64,000 nt of DNA from the NCBI GenBank assembly GCA_039545335.1, contig BCIN01000001.1, positions 1 to 64,000 on the forward strand, read 5' to 3'. The stretch comes from Kondoa subrosea (Eukaryota). Shown here piece after piece: positions 1 through 61,014 of this stretch; positions within the stretch are counted from its first letter, which is position 1; the number at the start of each line of letters is the position of its first letter. Both the position numbers and the translations under genes were made by a program. The notes beneath the pieces are model-generated. The model was not told the DNA's origin, ran no database searches, and saw nothing but the letters and a program-made list of their open reading frames with translations.

Positions 1-40
1 TAACTCTTCATAACTCTCGCTAACTCTCGCTAACTCTTCA
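1..40. repeat. Four tandem 10-bp units (TAACTCTTCA, TAACTCTCGC, TAACTCTCGC, TAACTCTTCA); candidate telomeric or satellite repeat
   Basis: Directly visible at the window start. The C-rich strand is on +, as expected for a left chromosome end. The array abuts and terminates the recombinase reading frame. Confidence 0.6.
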
Positions 41-1457
41 AAGCCTTGGCGGCTTCTCAGGCCCTCTGTCCCATCGCATAAAAGCATACAGCGCCCAAGC
101 ACCTTGACCACAAAGTTGCACCTCTCTATGCCGATAGTAAGCAATGAAATCCCTGCGCCCGTTCTGTAAAATGTTTTTGAGCATGAATAGTGTGCTCAAA
201 AATATCACTGACCTGATTGGTCTTGGATCTATCATTTTCATCTACGAACGCGCAGCAGAATGAAGGACCTTCTGTATCTTTACAGATTGCGTAAGAGAGA
301 TCTGCTAGTTGAAGCATCCTTCGATTGTCGCCTCTTGAGCCAGTCTGAGAGGCCGAAAGGTGTTCCCATCGGTTTCTGTGCAGCTAAGATCAATTTCACT
401 TTCAAGCTCAGAGTGATATTCCCACCTCAGACTTGCTTCTAGATATGTAGATTTGAGTAGCCAGTAATTGGCTCCAGCTAGTATACCTTCTGAACCATCT
501 TGATCTTCGAAACCGCCTATACCCCGATCGTAAAAAATGCTGAGAGCTTACAAGTCAGATGACCGTTGATTACACAAGCAAAGCACATGCGAACGCACGA
601 TCTGCGATACTCTCTAGCTTTCTGTTTGATCGCCTTTTCTAGGTTGGAGACCATTTTCGTTCGAGGGTGTATGAATATGGTAGACATCGGTTTGGATGCA
701 TGCTGTTGATGAGCTAAATCGACGATGGCTGCAATAGCTCTCTTGACAATCGGCTGTAATGGCGCGCGAGATCGTCAGATGGACATTCGGTAGATTGAGA
801 TTGACAAAAGACTTACAGGCGTTAGATCTCCAACTCTGACCCTCTGCTTACCACGGCCAGCAGTTTTACCTCTTTCTGCTAAGCCCGTCTCCATATACAG
901 AGCGAGCTTGTCCAAATGCGGGTCTGTTGCATGATCGTTTTTGAAGTTCAGTTGAGACCACTCCTGACAAACGCACACGCAGTTGAGCAGCGCAGCATCT
1001 CGTACTATCAAAGACTCACGCAGAATATCTTCTGCGCTGTTTTATAGCCTCTTGAGGTGTTCTTGGGTCTGTTGCTGATCCGCTGCCGCATTGCGCTTTC
1101 ACTGAGTTCCTTATGAATTTTTTGCTTCTTCACTGCCAGACCTGCTTCTTCTTCCTCATCATCATCTACATCTTCGTCGTCCGAGAGATCTTCATCCTCC
1201 CTTTGTTCTGCTCGCTCATTAATTTCCAAATCCAGTGCATCTGCTTCTTCGAGTGCTTCTTCGAGGCTTTCATCGATGGCAGGCAAAGCTGAAGGCTTCT
1301 CCTGTTTATACTTGTTCAAGAAAGATCCAGATTGTAGATCAAGTTTGCGGAATCTTGTAACATTAGTAACAGTTCCGCTGGAGGAAGATGCAGCCGCAGA
1401 TTGAGCATCGAGCAGAGGAGAGCGAGACGGAGAAGGTGCATTAGACGATGAAGACAT
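38..1457 (-). mobile_element. Crypton-type (Ndc10-like) tyrosine recombinase gene, intron-containing, 3'-truncated
   Basis: The spliced translation contains RPKNTSRGYKTAQK..EW, AIAAIVDL, SRGDNRRMLQLADL (catalytic-Arg region) and SKTNQ|NGRRDFIAYYRHREVQLCGQGAWALYAFMRW. These match the Crypton/Ndc10 KTNQxG..RH..C..ALA.Y.F.RW pattern. The HxxR..Y catalytic end is absent. Confidence 0.75.
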
Positions 1458-1529
1458 TTTCTCGATCTTGCGTTTTCGGGTCCCGGCATTCTTGCAAGGC
1501 TGCAATACGAATGAGTAAATCGTAATGCC

Positions 1530-2885
1530 TTAAGCGCACTGATCACTCACAAGTTCAGCTTTCAATTTATCCTTCATCGTCTTTACAGCAGGATAGTCTA
1601 AGGTATGAAAGGCGAGAGTATAAAGGGCTTTTAAATCATCTTGTCTGAGCTTCTGGATTTCGGTCTTAGAATAGGTAGAAAGGGTTCTGCAGGTATTGAG
1701 TGCAGAAGAATCATGACACAGCTCAGATTGCTGCTCAGATTGTGCTTGTAAGGAATCGTCTGGAAGGAGTATAGGTTGAGCGGCAGATGAAGTAGATGCA
1801 GATGAAGTAGATGAAGTAGTTGAAGTAGTTGAAGTAATTGAGAGGGGTTTAAGTAAAGGCGGAGTATTGGGAGCAGCAACGGAAGAAGAAGAAGAAGGCT
1901 GGATTTCTCGTAGCAGTAGCTTCGGCAGTGGAGTCACAGCAGGTGCAGAAGTGTCGGGAAGATTGTTTTGTGCAATGGCTTTTGTCGAATTGCCCAAGAT
2001 TGAGTGTATCGTACTAGCATGATTGCTGGTTGAAAACCGAGGTCTTTCTTGGGCTAGAGATAGAGTTTTGACCAGGGAGCAACAACCTTGATTTAAGAAG
2101 GAAGCTATTTTGATGTAGAGTGGTGTTTTGATTGATTCACTGTCGATACATAGTTGCAGAACATCAAGAGCAAGACATATGAGAGCCGACAAAGAAGAAT
2201 AGCAGGTTGTATTCGGAGGTGCAGCAATGTAGTCTGGAAAAGCTGGGAGAGACTGTCTTGTTGGTGATCGAACGTGTATCAGATCGGTCACGCGTTTAGC
2301 CAAGGCATCAACCCAGCCTCTGAGAGGATCCAGATGTACAGCTTTATGCTGTTTAGCGGCTCAGATTGCGATTCCTCAAGTGCGGAGGAGCGACTTACCT
2401 GAGGCAAATCAATCCGCTGAGATCGCATTATGACCGCCAGTGCGTCCCACGCATCACTCGCATCATCCGACCACCATTTTAGCCCATCAGCTGTTGTGAC
2501 CAGTTCGTCTGGTAATGCCCTATTCCATCATTAAGGCATTGTCGAAGAAGCTTGGGTGTAAAGAATACCTAGCTAAATGAAGTATCGTGGAGCTGAAACT
2601 CATCCAGCCTGCTGCTGCAATCATAAGAGAGTAACGCTTTCCCCTGCACTGCTCGAGACGAAGCAGGTGCGATCGCCGCCAAAGTGGAATGATGGGAATA
2701 CATCCAATTAAAGGTATAGCAGTAGGCTATGACAGTCTGTTATGCCTAACAGCTGATTGCAGATCAATGCGGCGATTAGAGGACGTGTATTCGGGTATAG
2801 CACACTGGATACGAGAATCGAATAGAATCGAACAGAGATAGAAGAGCTTTGACTCGCTGCTCCGTGCTCAAATGGGTCTCAGCGC
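1530..2885 (-). CDS. Hypothetical spliced protein directly upstream of the Crypton recombinase (possible element-borne gene); 5' end uncertain
   Basis: The 257-aa terminal ORF extends upstream in frame through three GT-AG introns (..STEQRVKALLSLFDSIRFSYP|PTAIPLIG..LHLA|RALPDELV..DLPQ|HKAVHLDPLRGW..). It has a Ser/Thr-rich linker and a C-terminal helical segment (EIQKLRQDDLKALY..MKDKLKAEL). Confidence 0.5.
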
Positions 2886-3804
2886 AGAGCTAGGCAGCCG
2901 TTGCAGGCAGACGCGCGAGAGCGGTTTGGCAAAATCATAACATTGAAAACTGTTCGTGGTAAACTCCAGCTCAACGGAACACGAAATTCGATCTCTCAAA
3001 ACAAGGCTGCGAAATTTCGGCGATCTTTTTTGGGCCTGAGCGGGACTCTTGATATTTCGCGGTTTAGGCATCCTCGTAGCAAGTAGATTGCCTGTCTTAG
3101 CGTTTTGTGGAAATGCCAATCCATTATCGGGCCACTGTATTTGATCACATGCACACATATATGCCGGCAGGCAGCAGCAAGTCAAGATTCGTAAGACCTC
3201 ATCTAGCTTAGGTCCTCCCTGAAAGATAACTAGGAAATCTAGAGGCCGTTCCTGATTCCACTTGACAAAACTGAAGGCAAAACATAAGAAAGAGAGCAGA
3301 AAAAGAGGTATCATGATAGGCAGTAAAGATAATAGATTAATGTATATGGGTTTGTAGGTATTACCTCTGTCTCCCGTGAGGTCGACATAGACCTTCCCTA
3401 AGACAAATGGCGACCTCATATAGAGGCCTTGCCTATGTCTGCTTTGTGTGTTGTGCATAAAGGGCGGGTTTCTCACTATTATGAGCTCTACCCGCAGGTT
3501 GATGGTTGATCCCCGAATGCTTTCTGCCTCCCCTCTTGTTCTTGATTACCACCTTCTTCTCGACAGCCTTGTCAACCTTTCCTATTGCCAACTTCTTTTT
3601 ACTGGAGCTGCTGGGCATGGTATAAAGAAGCTGTGGTATCGTTTGAGAGAAAACAACAATGCAATTTTCCGCGTTCTGACCGCGCAAGGACTTCTCAATT
3701 TGCTCAAGTACTGTCTATCCGGAAGGGGATCGAGAGCCCGAACTGTTGTTATTTTTTTGTTCTTTCCTTTCCTTCTGCTTTTATTTCCATACTACTGTAT
3801 CGCT

Positions 3805-4832: not shown

Positions 4833-5901
4833 ATGAGCCGGTTATATCGACCAGCTCTATCTTGCCAGAGATGCAGCAGCTTCCGATATCTGACTACTGA
4901 AGTACCAGAGGCATTGATAGGTTCACGGGAAGGACAGCTCAAAAACGGCAACAGTATGAAGAGAAGTATGGGCAGGCGCTCGAGGCTGCAGCAAAGGCGT
5001 GAGCGAATCGATATTTGTCTTCAGTTCTTGTTCATCTGGATGCCAGGAAAGGAGTAGACTTGCAGACGTTGAAGGACAAGGCTCGTCAAGCTGAAAAAGT
5101 GAAGCCAATCAAGCCATTCAGCTCGGCTCCCAATCTAGCAAGCAATTCATCTCTGCAACAGATACCTTCTGCTGTTGTAGCTCCTTCATTGCCGAGCGCG
5201 ATCGATCAAGCGAAGAGCAAGAGCGGCATCAAGGTCAGTAGTCCGCTCCTCTACTTCAGCGAGCTCAAGGCATCTATAGCCTCTGTCGGACATCATGGAC
5301 CCTACAAGAGCTTCTCACAAGGCATCCTGCACCTTCCGCTGAGGAGATTTCCGCCCTTTGGAAAGCTTATCATGCTTCAGCCAAATCAACAACGAAACTA
5401 GGCGCTGTCATCCCGGTCGAAACCTATAAGCGAATGGCTGCAATAGCTCGCGAGAATCTGCGCTTCATTATTCCTCTGCCTCGAGAAACATCTGACGGAA
5501 CTACTGGAGCGGAAAACATCTTTCTTGAATGGGCCTTCGTTCCTTCTTCTTCAACCATGCCAGTAGGCACACCAGAAACAACTACTGTGCTCTTCACTTC
5601 TTTGGCCTCGTACAAGAGCCATGGGACTTTTGCTCAGCCAGCCCTCATTCTAACACATTACACGGATCTTGCCATTTCGCATGGTATCGTTCTGCTTCGT
5701 GGTGAAATCACAGTAAGAAATTCAGGATCTGGACAGCTTATCTCTCAAACCGATGTTCAGCTTCTACGTATGCGTCTGCAGCGGTTTTATGCTGAGAAGA
5801 ACGAAGACTCGAAAGAAAGAAGGCTGCTGGCAGACTTACAAGGCAAGACAGGCAGGGAATTCAAGTATGAAGATCTGCTTGAGATGACGTGGCAGTTATG
5901 A
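4833..5901 (+). pseudogene. ATP11: ATP11 (mitochondrial F1-ATPase assembly chaperone) with two apparent frameshifts
   Basis: Presequence MSRLYRPALSCQRCSSFRYL. Motifs YEEKY, PLSDIMD(L)QEL, ISALWKAYH, FIIPLPR, TVLFTSLASYK, LTHYTDLA..GIVLLRGEI, LQRFY. The frame breaks at the A-run 4941-4945 and the C-run 5300-5302. Confidence 0.75.
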
Positions 5902-39187: not shown

Positions 39188-42100
39188 TCATCGTTTCGCC
39201 TTCTTCGCAGCAGGCTTTTTGCTCGTAGTTGCTGGAGTAGTTGCAGCCCTTTTCTTGCCTTTCGCTGCAGTCTTCTTTACAACCTCTTTTTCTGGGCTCG
39301 CTGAAGATGACGAAGGCTTCCAATCAAGTATCTCTTCCAGACTCTCTTCTTTCGCCAAAGCTTTCAGAAAAGCAATACTATCATCTGCTTGAGCTTTGAA
39401 CGAATTTAGCGAAGGTGGACCAGTTCCGGCAGATGTAGGTGCCGAAGGATTGATTAGCGTTGCATCTGGTATTCTGGAAAGCCTTGTCTCTGCCGCAGCC
39501 TGGAAATTAAAATGAGCATGGCAAAAAGTAAAGGGCAAAGCAAACTCACCACAGTAAATTTGGGATTTACGTGAGACGTGGTTGATATTGTCGAGTTGCC
39601 ATGCATGGCCAGCTTCGATGCAGAGGAGAAACCAGTCGTACCCGCCGGCATCATAGCTGAAGCTCGACTGAAGCCGTTCGTCGGAGGGAGACCCTGACTA
39701 GCCATTCCTGGCCTTTGCGACAGTGAAGGCACACTGTAGCTGCGATAACCTCCTTGACTATACGATGGACCAGCTTGACTTGACGAGTAGGAATAATTGG
39801 TCTGTGGGAGAGCTGCTGGCGCAGTCCGCGTTTGATAGCCGTTATACGATAAACCGCTAAATCGACTGGAGGACGCTTCAGGTGCCACTACTATGTCCCA
39901 AGCTGCTTCTTTTGGCTGAGTTCTGGTGCTGTTATATATCTTAGCTGAAACTCAGCTTTGCATATAGAGAGGAACGCACTGTTCTTCAATAGCTAGCTGA
40001 ATCACCTGTGCTTCGATCGCTTGACGCCTCAAGACTGCGTTCATCAGCAGCCTAGTGTCAGGACTGATTTGGTCCGGCTGATTCACCACTAGATTGCGAC
40101 TTTCAGTAGAAAGTTGATGCAAGAAAGGGCTCATTTTAGCTTGTTTGACATCAGCCTGTGGAGGATCATATGAGCTATGTATATTCTTTGCGCATATATA
40201 CCTACTCCTTGCATGCGAGCTCTGACGTGAGTCATGTAGAGTGCGACTTGTGCTCTTGTCATAGCGACGTAAAGCAACCGCCTGTCCGAGGCGTCCATTT
40301 ACACGGTCTGTGACTCTATGCGTGCACGTACCTTTCCTCGTCTTGCTGTTCCGGGGTGTCACACTTGAAGAAAGGAAGTATACCGTCTTCACAGGCTGGT
40401 ACAAAGATAACCGGCCATTCCAGACCTTTCGCAGAATGCACTGAACGGAAAATGAGCTTCATAGTATTCGATATTAGCTACGGACCTGTTGAGATAGTCA
40501 CTTTCGGTTTCTTTTCGTCACCCTCTTCTTCTACTTCAACGTCTGTCGATAATTGGGTTGCGGCCAGGAAAGTACGCAATGGTGTTGAAGGTGCAGCTTC
40601 GTCTGGTGATATCTTCTCGTCCAAACTACGGACATGTTGATTATTGTCAGGTTCGGGACCAGCTGAAAGACTCACATTTCCAAAGAATCCTCAAACCCGC
40701 TATCTTCTTGTTTACCCTTACCCTTGGAGATGAAGGGCTTCTCTTCAGCCTCATCATCCTCGTATTGGGTTTGCGACGAAGCTGGAACCGCTTCTTCGGA
40801 CTCTTCCGGTTCTATAGAATCTTTAGCAATTTGAGCAGAGTACGATCTAGTAGAGCATCCTTATCATCCCACCAATACAATTTGACTGAGATAAGACTCA
40901 CTTAAGTTCTTCGATGTTCTGCAAACGCGCATCTTTGTCTGTTCCGTACGTCCGTTCCAGATGTGCCTCGTATTCTATCGTCTGACAGATGACATCGATC
41001 AGTTCAGAGACATGAGCTCCCTGCGCAAGGTAAATGACAATGAGACAAGTATAAGGGGAAAAGCCTTCTGAGACAGCTTACCTTGTTGGCTAATTCCTTC
41101 GCTTTTGCAACAACAGCTACGAACGGCTTCAAAGCTTTCTTCTGTGCTGGCTTCAAGTCTCCGAGGCTCGAGCCGCGTAAAGAACGAGTGACAACTTCCA
41201 TCATGCTAATATTCTTCTCTTCAGCAGCACTTTGAATCTTCGCGATGGTTTGCGCCTGTTTCCGTTGAAGTGAGAAGTAGGACTTGGGGATATGTGGACA
41301 CTCACTCCGATAGCTCTTTTAGGCACATTGACGACCCTTTCAAAAGCCAAAGAATAACCAGGCGATTCAACCAGTTGCAAATAAGCTAGAATATCCTTGA
41401 CTTCTGCTCTATCAAAGAATTTGCTGCCACCTAGTATTCGATTTGGTATCCCGGCAGTCTGAAAAGCTCCCTCTAAAGATCTCGAGAGAGAGTTATACCG
41501 CAGCAGAATAGCGAAGTCTTCGTAGCCTAGCTGTCCTCCAGTATGCGCTATGAGACGCTTGATTTCCGAAGCAATGTATGCGCCTTCCATCTGAGGTGAA
41601 GGTAGCTGTCGGAGAACAACCCCTAGACCGCTAGAGTGGGACGTAAAGAGTTTCTTCTGGATGCGCTTAGTATCTTGTGAGACAACTGCTAGACTTGCGG
41701 CTAAGATAGCGCCAGTACTTCTGTAGTTCTCTTCTAGATAGATTTGGGCACAGGGCTTGAAATCTTTAAGCATGAAATCAATGTTTTCCACTTCAGCTGA
41801 ACGCCAACCGTAAATACTCTGGGTATTGTTCAGTCGGAGCAGCGCGAGAACGTGTAGAAAACCCACTTGGTCTGGATCACCAACGACCGTCAAGGCTTTA
41901 CACTTCTTGGCCATATATTTGACCATTTCGTATTGCACAGTATTGGTGTCCTGAAACTCGTCCACTAACACGTGCTTGACATTCGCTAATACTCTTTGAT
42001 GTTTTTGAAAGAGTTCAAGACCTTGAGAGAGCAGATCGTCAAAGTCTAAAGCATGATCCTTCACCAGCTGATTTTGATAGTCAAGGTAGATATCGCTAAT

Positions 42101-42904
42101 GATGATGTTCATTTCGTTGTTGTTGTTCTCTGCTGTGTGCCGGAATTGTTCTGGTGAGATACCTTTAGCTTTACACTTGCTGATTGTTTCTGCTACTGAT
42201 TTGGGTTTAGGTGGTTCAAGCGATAAAGCTGAGAATTGTTCCTTGGCTTCTAACACAAGTCTCTTGATGAGAGCAACGCTATCCGTATGATCGCAGATGA
42301 GCTGCAAAGACTACTTAGTAGAAATCATTGTCTAAGTTGTGCACTCACAAAGTTATTTGGAATAGAGATCAGCTGTCCATGTCGGCGAAGATCTGATAGT
42401 AAGGGATAAGCAAGTTAATCAGATCGTGTCTTGCCCTCACATCTAACGCTGACGCTATGAAAGGTGCCCATGACCAATTGAGAAGTAGCTTGATCTCCGA
42501 GCATAGCTTTCAATCGCTGCCGCATTTCATTTGCTGCTTTGTTCTATGTAATTTAATATAAGCGAGGCGATCTACTACGAGGCTTAGCTTACAGTGAAGG
42601 TCACCACAATCTGCAGCGACGGATCAGAATAGCTCGTCATCCAGGCCTTTAAGAAGGGCTTACCAAGTCTTTGGGCTGGATCTTATGTTCGATGACCATT
42701 TGTGCGATTCGTGAGGTAAGCGTCCTAGTCCTATGACAGTAAAGAAGCATAGACATGAGCGAACGCTGTTGCTGCTGGAAAGGTTCATGCGATGACTGAC
42801 TTGCCAGATCCTGGACCTGCGAGAATCTGCAAAGATGCTTTTGGCGAGAAAGTGACTGCCCGTTGTTGCGCTTCATTAAGATGCGCTAGGTGAAGAGATG
42901 CCAT
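39188..42904 (-). CDS. SRS2: UvrD/REP-family DNA helicase Srs2
   Basis: LNEAQQRAV, ILAGPGS|GKT, TF|TNKAANEM, GTFH, LDFDDLL, LVDEFQDTN, VGDPDQ|SIYGWR, LEENYRS, HSAKGLEWP, LYVAMTRA. Confidence 0.93.
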
Positions 42905-44215: not shown

Positions 44216-44374
44216 TGTCTGCTGTCAAAGGAAGGGACGTCCCATCAAGTCTCTGAGCCGAGCCTGGAGCCTGCCTGGCTCTTCTGGTGATAGAAATACT
44301 CTGTACGCTCATATACTCATATAACAAATGGTCCCGTGATCATTTCGCTGCTTTCTCGTTAGCTGACTCCTTGG

Positions 44375-45754
44375 ATGGCTTCAATCAGTAACCTACCAGT
44401 AGAGCTTCAAGCAGCCATTCTTTCTGAGCTACGCGGCAGTAACCCACTCAACCCCGGCTATCTTCTGCGGGGTACTATCGCTCGATGCGCTTCAGTTAGC
44501 CGTTTGTGGCACTCGCTGGCAACACCTTTGCTTTACGAGCGAGTAAATCTGGATCTCGACACAATTCCAAATATCAACAGAAGGATTACCAGAAGAAGTG
44601 CGGCTGCAGCAGCGATACCAAATCTTTTCAGCATCTTGTATCAAGACCAGAATCTTTGTGAGCATATCAAAATATTAGCGATTTACACCGAGGATCCCCT
44701 GTCGTACCAAATTGCCAACTTTTTGCAACTCTTACGATCCTGTACCAGGATTGTCCATCTTATATGTACTTCTCTTGGACCACCTCCATCGAAATCTGTC
44801 ATTTCTGCTATCCGAATGCTTTCTAGCTTGAGGACTGCATACTTTGAATATGATAACGACACCTCACCTCCATCATGCGCGGCTTTCTATACCACTTTGC
44901 TCGAAATGGCTCCGCAATTGACGGAAATGTGCTTCAACCAGTGTTTAGGAGGAGCAATGGCGACAGTGAAGTCATGCAGAGCTGCAAATGGGGTTGAGCT
45001 GGATGAAGATTCAAAGCCTGGATCTTTGCACTCCTTCCTCCGCCAATTGAAGACAGGTCAAACGCCGCTAGCAATCACGGAGTTTCAGGGTTCGCCGGAC
45101 TGTCATCTTGATTTGAGCAGACCTTGCGAGCATTTGAATACACAGTTCTTGCGCAGCTTAATTCTGGTTAATCAAGCTTTGCCAAGTACGGCGGACTGGA
45201 TACAAGCCTCGCCATTCTTGCCTGCACTTGTATCCTTGGACGTTTCCATACCCGGGGGACTACCCGCTGGAGATGTGATCCATCGCCGACATGACGAGTT
45301 CGGCCATCTCATCTCCTCCTTGGCACAAACACGCCTAAGCTCACAATTGACGAAGTTGGCTTTTGATTATGCAAGGAGAACGCAAGCAATTACACATTTT
45401 GATCCATTGCTTCGACACTTTCCGAACCTCCGTCACTGCTATATCACGACTAATTCCCGGTGCTGTCCTCAAATTGCTGGCGACTGTGCTTTCTCCGTCG
45501 ACGCCCTCACTTTGGCTGACGATGCCCCAAGAGCAGAACAACTTCAAGCTTTGTGCAAATTTGCATCCACTTTTACAGCTCAAAGGCAGTCAAGAGTCGT
45601 CGAAATCATTGTCGATCTGTGCTTCTGTCGAGGGGAGATGTTTCTGAATTTTGAAGGGGGGCAGCTTACACATCATTATGTTCCGGAATCGGATGTCTTC
45701 AGAGGCTGGAGAAGGATCTTTGGCATTAGCGAAGCCGATGATGCTGAAGCATGA
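44375..45754 (+). CDS. Intronless F-box protein with RNI/LRR-like body (copy A)
   Basis: 459-aa ORF. F-box pattern LPVELQAAIL..CASVSRLWHSLATPLLY and LxxLxL repeats (LVSLDV, FPNLRHC). Confidence 0.85.
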   Translation: MASISNLPVELQAAILSELRGSNPLNPGYLLRGTIARCASVSRLWHSLATPLLYERVNLDLDTIPNINRRITRRSAAAAAIPNLFSILYQDQNLCEHIKILAIYTEDPLSYQIANFLQLLRSCTRIVHLICTSLGPPPSKSVISAIRMLSSLRTAYFEYDNDTSPPSCAAFYTTLLEMAPQLTEMCFNQCLGGAMATVKSCRAANGVELDEDSKPGSLHSFLRQLKTGQTPLAITEFQGSPDCHLDLSRPCEHLNTQFLRSLILVNQALPSTADWIQASPFLPALVSLDVSIPGGLPAGDVIHRRHDEFGHLISSLAQTRLSSQLTKLAFDYARRTQAITHFDPLLRHFPNLRHCYITTNSRCCPQIAGDCAFSVDALTLADDAPRAEQLQALCKFASTFTAQRQSRVVEIIVDLCFCRGEMFLNFEGGQLTHHYVPESDVFRGWRRIFGISEADDAEA

Positions 45755-59480: not shown

Positions 59481-60854
59481 TTAAATCTCAAGGTTGCCCG
59501 CTACATCAATACCCAAAAGTGTCTTCCAATCCTTCAAAGCATCTGATCCCGGTACGTTATACCAGTCCAATTTTCCGCCCTGGAAAATCATCTCCATTTC
59601 GCTTCCACAATGGCATAGCTCTACAATAACCTGAACTGTATTGGCGTCCGCTCTTGATGTGAAAATGCTTGCAAAGATGCACATCTCTCGTACTTGCTGA
59701 ACCTGAAGTATTTCTGCAGCGAGTGTCATAACGCCTCGGGAGTATGCGCAACGTCCAGCAAGCAGAGGACAGCATTGTGATCTTGTGACAAGAGAACATT
59801 TGCGCAAAATGGGAAAGTGAGAAACTAGCTGCGAGTACTTGACTTGAGGTCGAAGAGCCGTGCCGAAGTCACAATGGAATTCTTCTAATCGTAAGCTTAT
59901 CTTGGTGTCGACTAAGATAGCAAACAGCTGGCCTAGGTCATCGCTCGTCGATGGAGGAAGTTCCTGAGCTAAGGAAATATCCAAAGAGGTTAGGCAAGGT
60001 AATGAAGATGCGGCTTGGACCCAAGTCGCAGGGCTGGCCAGATCTTGAGGGAGCAGCACCAACCTGCGAAGACGTCGTATGTTGAAATTTTCACACAGCC
60101 GGCGCAAGCTATAATTCCCGAAATCCCAGTCTTGCCAGCCAGCGAATTCTTCTATCGCCAATGGAATATGTTGGTCATCCAGACAGCTTAAGAAGGAGTG
60201 TAGAGAATCGGAATGCCGATTCAGCAAGGACATTGGTAAGTCTAGGCTGTAGTCGGCTTGCATAGTCATCACCACTCCGCTTAAACGCTGATCAATCGTC
60301 AATTCTTCTAGATTGGGGGCCAAACCCAATAAAGCAGTGTAAAACGCCGTCACCAGCTGCGGCATGTCATCCTCTCCATATTCGAAATAAACCCTTTTCA
60401 AATTGGCCAAGCCTGACAAAGTGGACATGACAGATAAAGGAGGCGGATCATCATTAGACGTGCAGACGAGGTGATTGACGTTGGTACAGAATTGAAGCAA
60501 ATGCGAGAACGTGTCAACTTGAGATTGCTTTGGCCCAGTAGTGTATATGGCCAAGATCTTGATATGCCCGCAAAGCTGGCTGTTCTGTTGCAAAGTATTG
60601 AACAGGTTTGGTGAAGCCAATTCAGCTGTGGCTCTCCTTGTCACCCTTCTGTTACTATCTGGAATGCTGTCAAGGACGAGATTGACCCGTTCGTAAAGTA
60701 GAGGAGTTGCTAGTGCGTTCCACAGACGGGAGACAGATGCGCATCTTGTAATGGTGATACGGAATTGACGTTCCGGATTGAAGAGATCGCTGCCGCGTAG
60801 CTGAGAAAAAATGGCCGCCTGGAGCTCTACTGGTAGGTTACTGATTGAAGCCAT
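59481..60854 (-). CDS. Intronless F-box protein with RNI/LRR-like body (copy B)
   Basis: Starts MASISNLPVELQAAIF like copy A and is collinear with it to the C-terminus. Confidence 0.85.
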   Translation of the reverse strand: MASISNLPVELQAAIFSQLRGSDLFNPERQFRITITRCASVSRLWNALATPLLYERVNLVLDSIPDSNRRVTRRATAELASPNLFNTLQQNSQLCGHIKILAIYTTGPKQSQVDTFSHLLQFCTNVNHLVCTSNDDPPPLSVMSTLSGLANLKRVYFEYGEDDMPQLVTAFYTALLGLAPNLEELTIDQRLSGVVMTMQADYSLDLPMSLLNRHSDSLHSFLSCLDDQHIPLAIEEFAGWQDWDFGNYSLRRLCENFNIRRLRRLVLLPQDLASPATWVQAASSLPCLTSLDISLAQELPPSTSDDLGQLFAILVDTKISLRLEEFHCDFGTALRPQVKYSQLVSHFPILRKCSLVTRSQCCPLLAGRCAYSRGVMTLAAEILQVQQVREMCIFASIFTSRADANTVQVIVELCHCGSEMEMIFQGGKLDWYNVPGSDALKDWKTLLGIDVAGNLEI

Positions 60855-61014
60855 TCTGTGCAGTCTGCTAACGACAAGAATCAGCGAAATGACGTTGAAA
60901 GAAGTGTTTGTAGTAAAGGTACAAATGCACAAGCTCAATCACCAGAATATCTAGGCAGTACCAGGCCCAGTTCACCAATTTGATGAATTCCGTCCGTTCC
61001 TTTGACAGCACACA

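Follow-up and report, generated by a model that had tools for sequence, protein, structure and literature searches.

The window, that is, the whole stretch of 64,000 nucleotides analysed here, was found to open with a short tandem array, directly followed by an intron-rich gene read on the minus strand. Positions 1-40 of the plus strand consist of four consecutive decamers, TAACTCTTCA, TAACTCTCGC, TAACTCTCGC and TAACTCTTCA; these are hereafter referred to as unit A (TAACTCTTCA) and unit B (TAACTCTCGC), giving a unit order of A B B A. Unique sequence begins at position 41, directly after the array. The features recognised at this end of the window were as follows:

1..40, plus strand: four units of a 10-base repeat, C-rich strand, inner edge of a presumed telomere array (sequence, Tandem Repeats Finder and unitig depth)
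38..40, minus strand: TGA stop of the spliced frame, in the first repeat unit
41..163, minus strand: last retained exon, 41 codons, NGRRDF...EKPPRL, resembling a tyrosine recombinase
164..212, minus strand: intron of 49 nt, GTCAGT...TTACAG
about 213..375, minus strand: exon of 54 codons with ...SRGDNRRMLQLADL...DRSKTNQ
376..425, minus strand: intron of 50 nt, GTGGGA...GCACAG
426..516, minus strand: exon
517..563, minus strand: intron of 47 nt, GT..AG; alternative intron of 35 nt at 517..551
564 (or 552)..753, minus strand: exon
754..816, minus strand: intron of 63 nt, GT..AG
817..963, minus strand: exon
964..1019, minus strand: intron of 56 nt, GT..AG
1020..1499, minus strand: exon
1500..1550, minus strand: intron of 51 nt, GTGAGT...TTGCAG, linking the upstream 276-codon open reading frame to the recombinase-like part
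1551..2360, minus strand: large exon further upstream in this gene, for which no relatives were detected

Exons traced on the minus strand from position 2360 down to position 41 were joined across six GT-AG introns of 47-63 nt into a gene of 668 codons, with use of the one alternative intron of 35 nt giving 672 codons instead. The sole stop codon in the spliced frame is the TGA at 40-38 of the minus strand. A preliminary description of this DNA had stated that the recombinase frame ends where the array starts, and this was borne out, the minus-strand reading ...RWDRGPEKPPRL ending with that TGA inside the first repeat unit. The junction between gene and array falls within approximately 37-41. 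As nothing but the repeat closes the frame, which is open as far as the junction, the gene appears to have been cut by the chromosome end. The possibility that the TGA at 40-38 is the natural end of the gene was considered and rejected, given that the stop is located inside the repeat and that the look-alike domain would be cut at approximately one third of its length.

The 276-codon N-terminal exon and further open reading frames upstream of it (1551-2726, minus strand) had no detectable relatives and no Pfam family; for the exon, a word search returned 6,460 candidates, none of which reached E <= 0.01. This exon also encodes a Ser/Thr-rich stretch that arises from 9-base tandem repeats at 1783-1841. 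Elsewhere in the window, an open reading frame at 41201-42310 (minus strand) carries UvrD-helicase and UvrD_C domains (E 1e-32 and 7e-30) and is probably an exon of a Srs2-type helicase, whilst those at 44363-45754 (plus strand) and 59481-60938 (minus strand) carry F-box-like domains and no other Pfam family.

The two exons closest to the junction were compared with protein clusters, and both of the exons tried gave look-alike scores of 0.88-0.92. For the exon at approximately 213-375 the nearest clusters were those of DUF3435 (0.91 and 0.90) and DUF3504 (0.90), and for the exon at 41-163 an unnamed cluster (0.92), DUF3504 (0.91), DUF3435 (0.91) and NDC10_II (0.88). NDC10_II was also the sole Pfam family recovered with the latter exon, at E 0.21 and with 11 bits against a cut-off of 26.3, over profile positions 90-115 of 317. 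Pfam searches with the open reading frames of the gene at E <= 1 otherwise gave chance-level matches only. Three word-index searches with parts of the gene yielded no significant match, a HMMER search with an 85-residue open reading frame holding one of the look-alike exons returned 0 matches among 1.84 billion proteins, and PDB sequence searches with both look-alike exons produced none at E <= 10. The preliminary description had named the gene a Crypton recombinase; of this, the weak but concordant leads to DUF3435, DUF3504 and NDC10_II stand, and a significant alignment does not.

Within the exon at approximately 213-375, there is an Arg that we take to be the first catalytic one and a Lys that would correspond to that of the hairpin, a reading based on the motif rather than on an alignment. 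No H-x-x-R motif was found after the candidate Lys in the last exon. According to the available text of Kojima & Jurka (2011, PMC3212892), DUF3504 and Cbf2/Ndc10 derive from Crypton recombinases, in which the catalytic tetrad is R-H-R-Y. The tetrad is incomplete in the retained part of the gene, which stops approximately one third into the domain, the rest falling beyond the break, and this speaks to the retained part and not to the original gene. Similarly, no Pfam family corresponding to the GCR1_C domain of CryptonF was detected on any exon or open reading frame, and that domain would lie C-terminal to the break. Neither the gene nor the first 3 kb recurs elsewhere in the window, and the flank is at single-copy depth in the reads; with respect to mobility, no similar unitig continued past the junction and no element termini were seen. 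With moderate confidence, we regard the gene on its sequence as probably Crypton-type in kind, and we do not class it as a Crypton: it occurs as a single copy, its long N-terminal part is an orphan and nothing beyond approximately one third of the domain is retained.

Analysis of the array confirmed the earlier reading of two variant units sharing TAACTCT at 1-40, with both the unit description and the placement of the C-rich strand on the plus strand being correct. Tandem Repeats Finder reported a period of 10 with 3.7 copies and a score of 39 at 1-37. The 40 bases of the four units have a plus-strand composition of A10 C14 G2 T14, which identifies the plus strand as the C-rich, G-poor strand, and this polarity at the window start is that expected for a left chromosome end. 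Units A and B differ from one another at three adjacent bases (TCA vs CGC). The G-strand units had been given as TTAGCGAGAG and TTATGAAGAG, the right rotations of the reverse complements; both are of the form TT-NNNN-AGAG (TT-AGCG-AGAG and TT-ATGA-AGAG), and the G strand of the repeat is devoid of G runs.

By chance, the base frequencies of the window would give approximately 4e-12 arrays in which four exact copies of the TAACTCT core are spaced 10 bases apart. The core 7-mer itself is not enriched across the whole window (10 matches vs 9.3 expected). When up to two mismatches were allowed, TAACTCTNNNTAACTCT matched three times in the window, in all cases inside 1-37, and the remaining 63,960 bases contained 0 copies of the repeat. 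Likewise, no TTAGGG dimer was found in the window with up to two mismatches, nor a telomerase-RNA-template-like copy of the repeat, and Rfam matches on the window numbered 0.

The abundance of the repeat was investigated in two public sequencing runs, X1 and X2, each amounting to approximately 19 million letters of contigs. Both runs derive from one sample, probably the source of the assembly, and hence are independent neither of the assembly nor of each other. Logan unitigs of X1 and X2 were placed on positions 1-3000, and a total of 55 (X1) and 376 (X2) unitigs fell on the 40 repeat bases. The summed depth of the bin at 1-100 was 25,077.7 in X1 and 105,818.1 in X2, relative to 65.2 and 183.8, respectively, in each of the other 29 bins, such that the first 100-base bin stands at 385x (X1) and 576x (X2) the single-copy depth. 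Given that the repeat fills only 40 of the 100 positions of this bin, these values correspond to approximately 960 (X1) and 1,440 (X2) single-copy equivalents per repeat position. From the depth and the unitig lengths of 37-60 bases, all arrays together would come to approximately 10 kb per genome, a figure too crude to serve as evidence. Unitig depth measures abundance and not position, and so cannot separate a telomere from a satellite totalling approximately 10 kb.

The repeat also continues in the reads. Loose ends of unitigs extending past positions 36, 37 and 40 go on as more units (TAACTCTCG), demonstrating that the arrays exceed 40 bases, and the unitig joints 37 to 1 and 40 to 1 represent tandem continuity. 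Variant units, such as TAACTCTCGT and TAACTCGCGC, were rare, at depths of 8-47, which is under single copy in X2. In X1, a single-copy unitig of 3,072 bases spans from position 3000 to position 18 with 0 differences, and as it crosses the junction, the reads confirm that the array is truly joined to unique DNA. The matching single-copy unitig of X2 ends at position 49 with one letter different, the cause of which is unexplained; this end (window 41-49) could reflect heterogeneity of the junction in the culture or an artefact of the graph. In both runs, the share of unitigs that match the unique flank and then continue with unlike sequence was 0.

The preliminary description had proposed that the window starts at a chromosome end with an atypical repeat. 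This proposal was strengthened by the high-copy tandem array in the reads and by the left-end strand polarity, and the array probably represents a genuine basidiomycete telomere of non-canonical type, sitting on a recombinase-like gene that has been truncated. Further along the window, an exon of ATP11, an F1-ATPase assembly factor, is located at 5242-5901 on the plus strand (Pfam E 1.2e-53). As this exon is only approximately 5 kb away, the presumed end has almost no subtelomeric buffer, and the proximity of ATP11, together with a first 3 kb that is single in the window, is more in keeping with a terminal deletion than with a subtelomere that is old and rich in repeats. As a counterweight, the array in the window is only 40 bases long.

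To the array, its high copy number and continuation in the reads, its polarity and a frame stopped only by the repeat, the following sequence of events would be added. Position 1 would lie at the physical end of a chromosome, and positions 1-40 would be the units lying furthest inside a true telomere array in a basidiomycete yeast of approximately 19 Mb, in which the telomeric repeat would not be TTAGGG and would instead be a decamer in two interspersed versions, TTAGCGAGAG and TTATGAAGAG. The original terminus would have been lost through a break inside a long intron-rich gene with a C-terminal tyrosine-recombinase domain of the Crypton/DUF3435 type, taking with it approximately the distal two thirds of the domain, the portion expected to hold the His-x-x-Arg motif and the Tyr nucleophile. 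On the broken end, a new telomere would then have been seeded and the array extended to normal length. Taken as a whole, this reading of a true telomere array, a terminal break inside a recombinase-type gene and a new telomere seeded there is the one that we favour, and we hold it to be fairly probable.

Telomerase may have been the builder of the array, adding repeats from a long template with GAGTTA at more than one position; re-alignment at these sites could then make the unit order irregular, as in A B B A. In such a one-template model, the RNA template would hold more than one C-strand unit, for instance ...CTCTCGCTAACTCTTCATAACTC..., and both healing by telomerase and the single template are plausible. 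With three adjacent bases distinguishing the two units, misincorporation cannot account for either arising from the other. The units might stem from a long template containing both, from a pair of telomerase RNA genes or alleles, or from recombination.

Recombination also figures in a reading under which the window starts at a true chromosome end that is maintained independently of telomerase, whether by recombination, break-induced replication or rolling-circle replication, as has been proposed for the telomerase-negative Microstromatales yeasts; the two units would then just be what an amplified array contained when it was copied onto the broken gene from another end. Loss of Est2/TERT and Tpp1, together with ends other than TTAGGG, is possible in basidiomycete yeasts, and two short-read Microstromatales assemblies were devoid of TTAGGG, according to the accessible portion of PMC13234504. 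The three adjacent differences between A and B, being beyond telomerase misincorporation, and the low-depth variant units in the reads also favour such maintenance. On the other hand, the Microstromatales motifs in that portion are 41-178 bp long and mostly specific to one end, as opposed to a unit of 10 bp here, and the G+C content of the window (0.45-0.49) is lower than the 49.8-60.3% given there for four Microstromatales genomes. The repeat also retains the TTAG/TTA core and the TT-NNNN-AG-G decamer layout of the telomerase-made repeats of the Yarrowia clade, as these appear in the available text of PMC7857110, and its motif occurs 0 times in the NAR 2026 supplement (1 file). We consider maintenance of this kind unlikely, if quite conceivable.

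The array could otherwise be an internal or subterminal satellite inside which the assembly broke, the gene continuing, or having once continued, beyond it. Just 40 bases are visible, and the unitig depth gives abundance and not position, both of which leave room for a satellite. Set against these, it is the repeat itself that stops the reading frame, the share of unitigs leaving the unique flank into unlike sequence was 0 in both runs, the 63,960 further bases contain no interstitial copy and the strand polarity fits a left end, such that a satellite seems improbable. A technical origin at the edge of the contig, from an adapter or a chimera, as might be suggested by the location of the repeat at the extreme edge of the window, is scarcely credible in light of the 3,072-base X1 unitig that carries the junction with 0 differences and the 55 and 376 unitigs that carry the repeat in tandem continuity in the two runs.

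Returning to a true telomere healed onto a broken gene, a broader proposal can be advanced tentatively, and we would not be surprised to see it fail: that a basidiomycete lineage swapped TTAGGG for a Yarrowia-like TT-NNNN-AGAG repeat, with the two versions originating from one enlarged template of at least 20 nt in which GAGTTA recurs several times, letting every round resume at either of its positions, and that this second independent 'runaway' start has here been caught healing a fresh terminal deletion. 'Runaway' telomere evolution is so far known only from ascomycete yeasts, and a basidiomycete case, if true, would be a second independent start. If real, a short decamer in two versions would constitute a third state of basidiomycete telomeres, beside the TTAGGG-like and the telomerase-negative, long-motif ones. 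If telomerase makes it, the lineage would exemplify in nature the enlargement of a template with alternative re-alignment, as well as the adaptation of telomere-binding proteins to a repeat devoid of G runs. The joining of the array straight to an open gene would also provide a wild-fungus case of chromosome healing to which a date could be put.

Every G-strand rotation of unit B, together with some strings of unit A and of the C strand of unit B, was sought in the published literature outside subscription journals, and in none of the papers searched did they appear as a telomere motif, being encountered only in primers or as chance strings. The motif had 0 occurrences in the TelFinder supplement and, equally, in that of NAR 2026. 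A scan of metagenomes with TAACTCTYSMTAACTCTYSMTAACTCT retrieved 12 loci, of which 0 had TCA and CGC units mixed or an array at a contig end, and all 12 were rejected as related arrays, being unrelated internal minisatellites. One of them, L003:948-974, consists of five TAACTCTCGC units in a degenerate internal minisatellite of unrelated context.

Amongst known systems, the healing of chromosomes by de novo telomere addition at breaks occurs in yeast, ciliates and Plasmodium, and in human terminal deletions. The locus described here resembles these cases in that the array abuts non-telomeric coding sequence with nothing in between, save a possible overlap of 1-3 bases at most (T/TT at 41-42), and differs from them in that it is known from sequence alone, with a junction placed to about 37-41. 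CryptonF / DUF3435 tyrosine recombinases, reportedly the subject of work by Goodwin and colleagues in 2003, resemble the window gene in that it is fungal and intron-containing, with exons nearest to DUF3435, DUF3504 and NDC10_II. The window gene departs from them in being single-copy, in having an orphan N-terminal part and in lacking, as retained, termini, His-x-x-Arg, Tyr and GCR1_C, as well as any significant alignment.

Basidiomycete telomeres typically consist of TTAGGG, with TTTAGGG and TTAGG variants, in the available text of PMC7857110 (TTAGGG-like ends are also described in PMC12506658), and Malassezia has four short telomere variants (PMC12506658). The only basidiomycete yeasts published so far (2026) with ends other than TTAGGG are, by the part of PMC13234504 available, the telomerase-negative Microstromatales, which have no Est2/TERT or Tpp1 and carry motifs of 41-178 bp in kilobase-long arrays that are mostly unique to one end (PMC13234504). 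The present case is likewise a basidiomycete yeast with chromosome ends that would be other than TTAGGG, and its high-copy unit of 10 bp sets it apart from the long motifs described in that part.

A mixture of two repeat versions within one array is also seen in certain Candida tropicalis strains, where two alleles of the telomerase RNA have been given as its cause (McEachern & Blackburn 1994, as relayed in the available text of PMC7857110); the versions there are one nucleotide apart, whereas here they differ at three adjacent positions (TCA vs CGC). Closest in form are the repeats of the Yarrowia clade, in which 12 of 13 species have telomerase-made decamers of 5'-TTNNNNAGGG-3' in the same available text (PMC7857110). 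These share with the present repeat a unit of 10 nt that begins with TT, continues with four variable nucleotides and closes with an AG-G-type end, whilst differing, as far as that text extends, in belonging to ascomycetes, in having one unit per species and in ending with AGGG, in contrast to the two interspersed units ending with AGAG that are found here in a basidiomycete.
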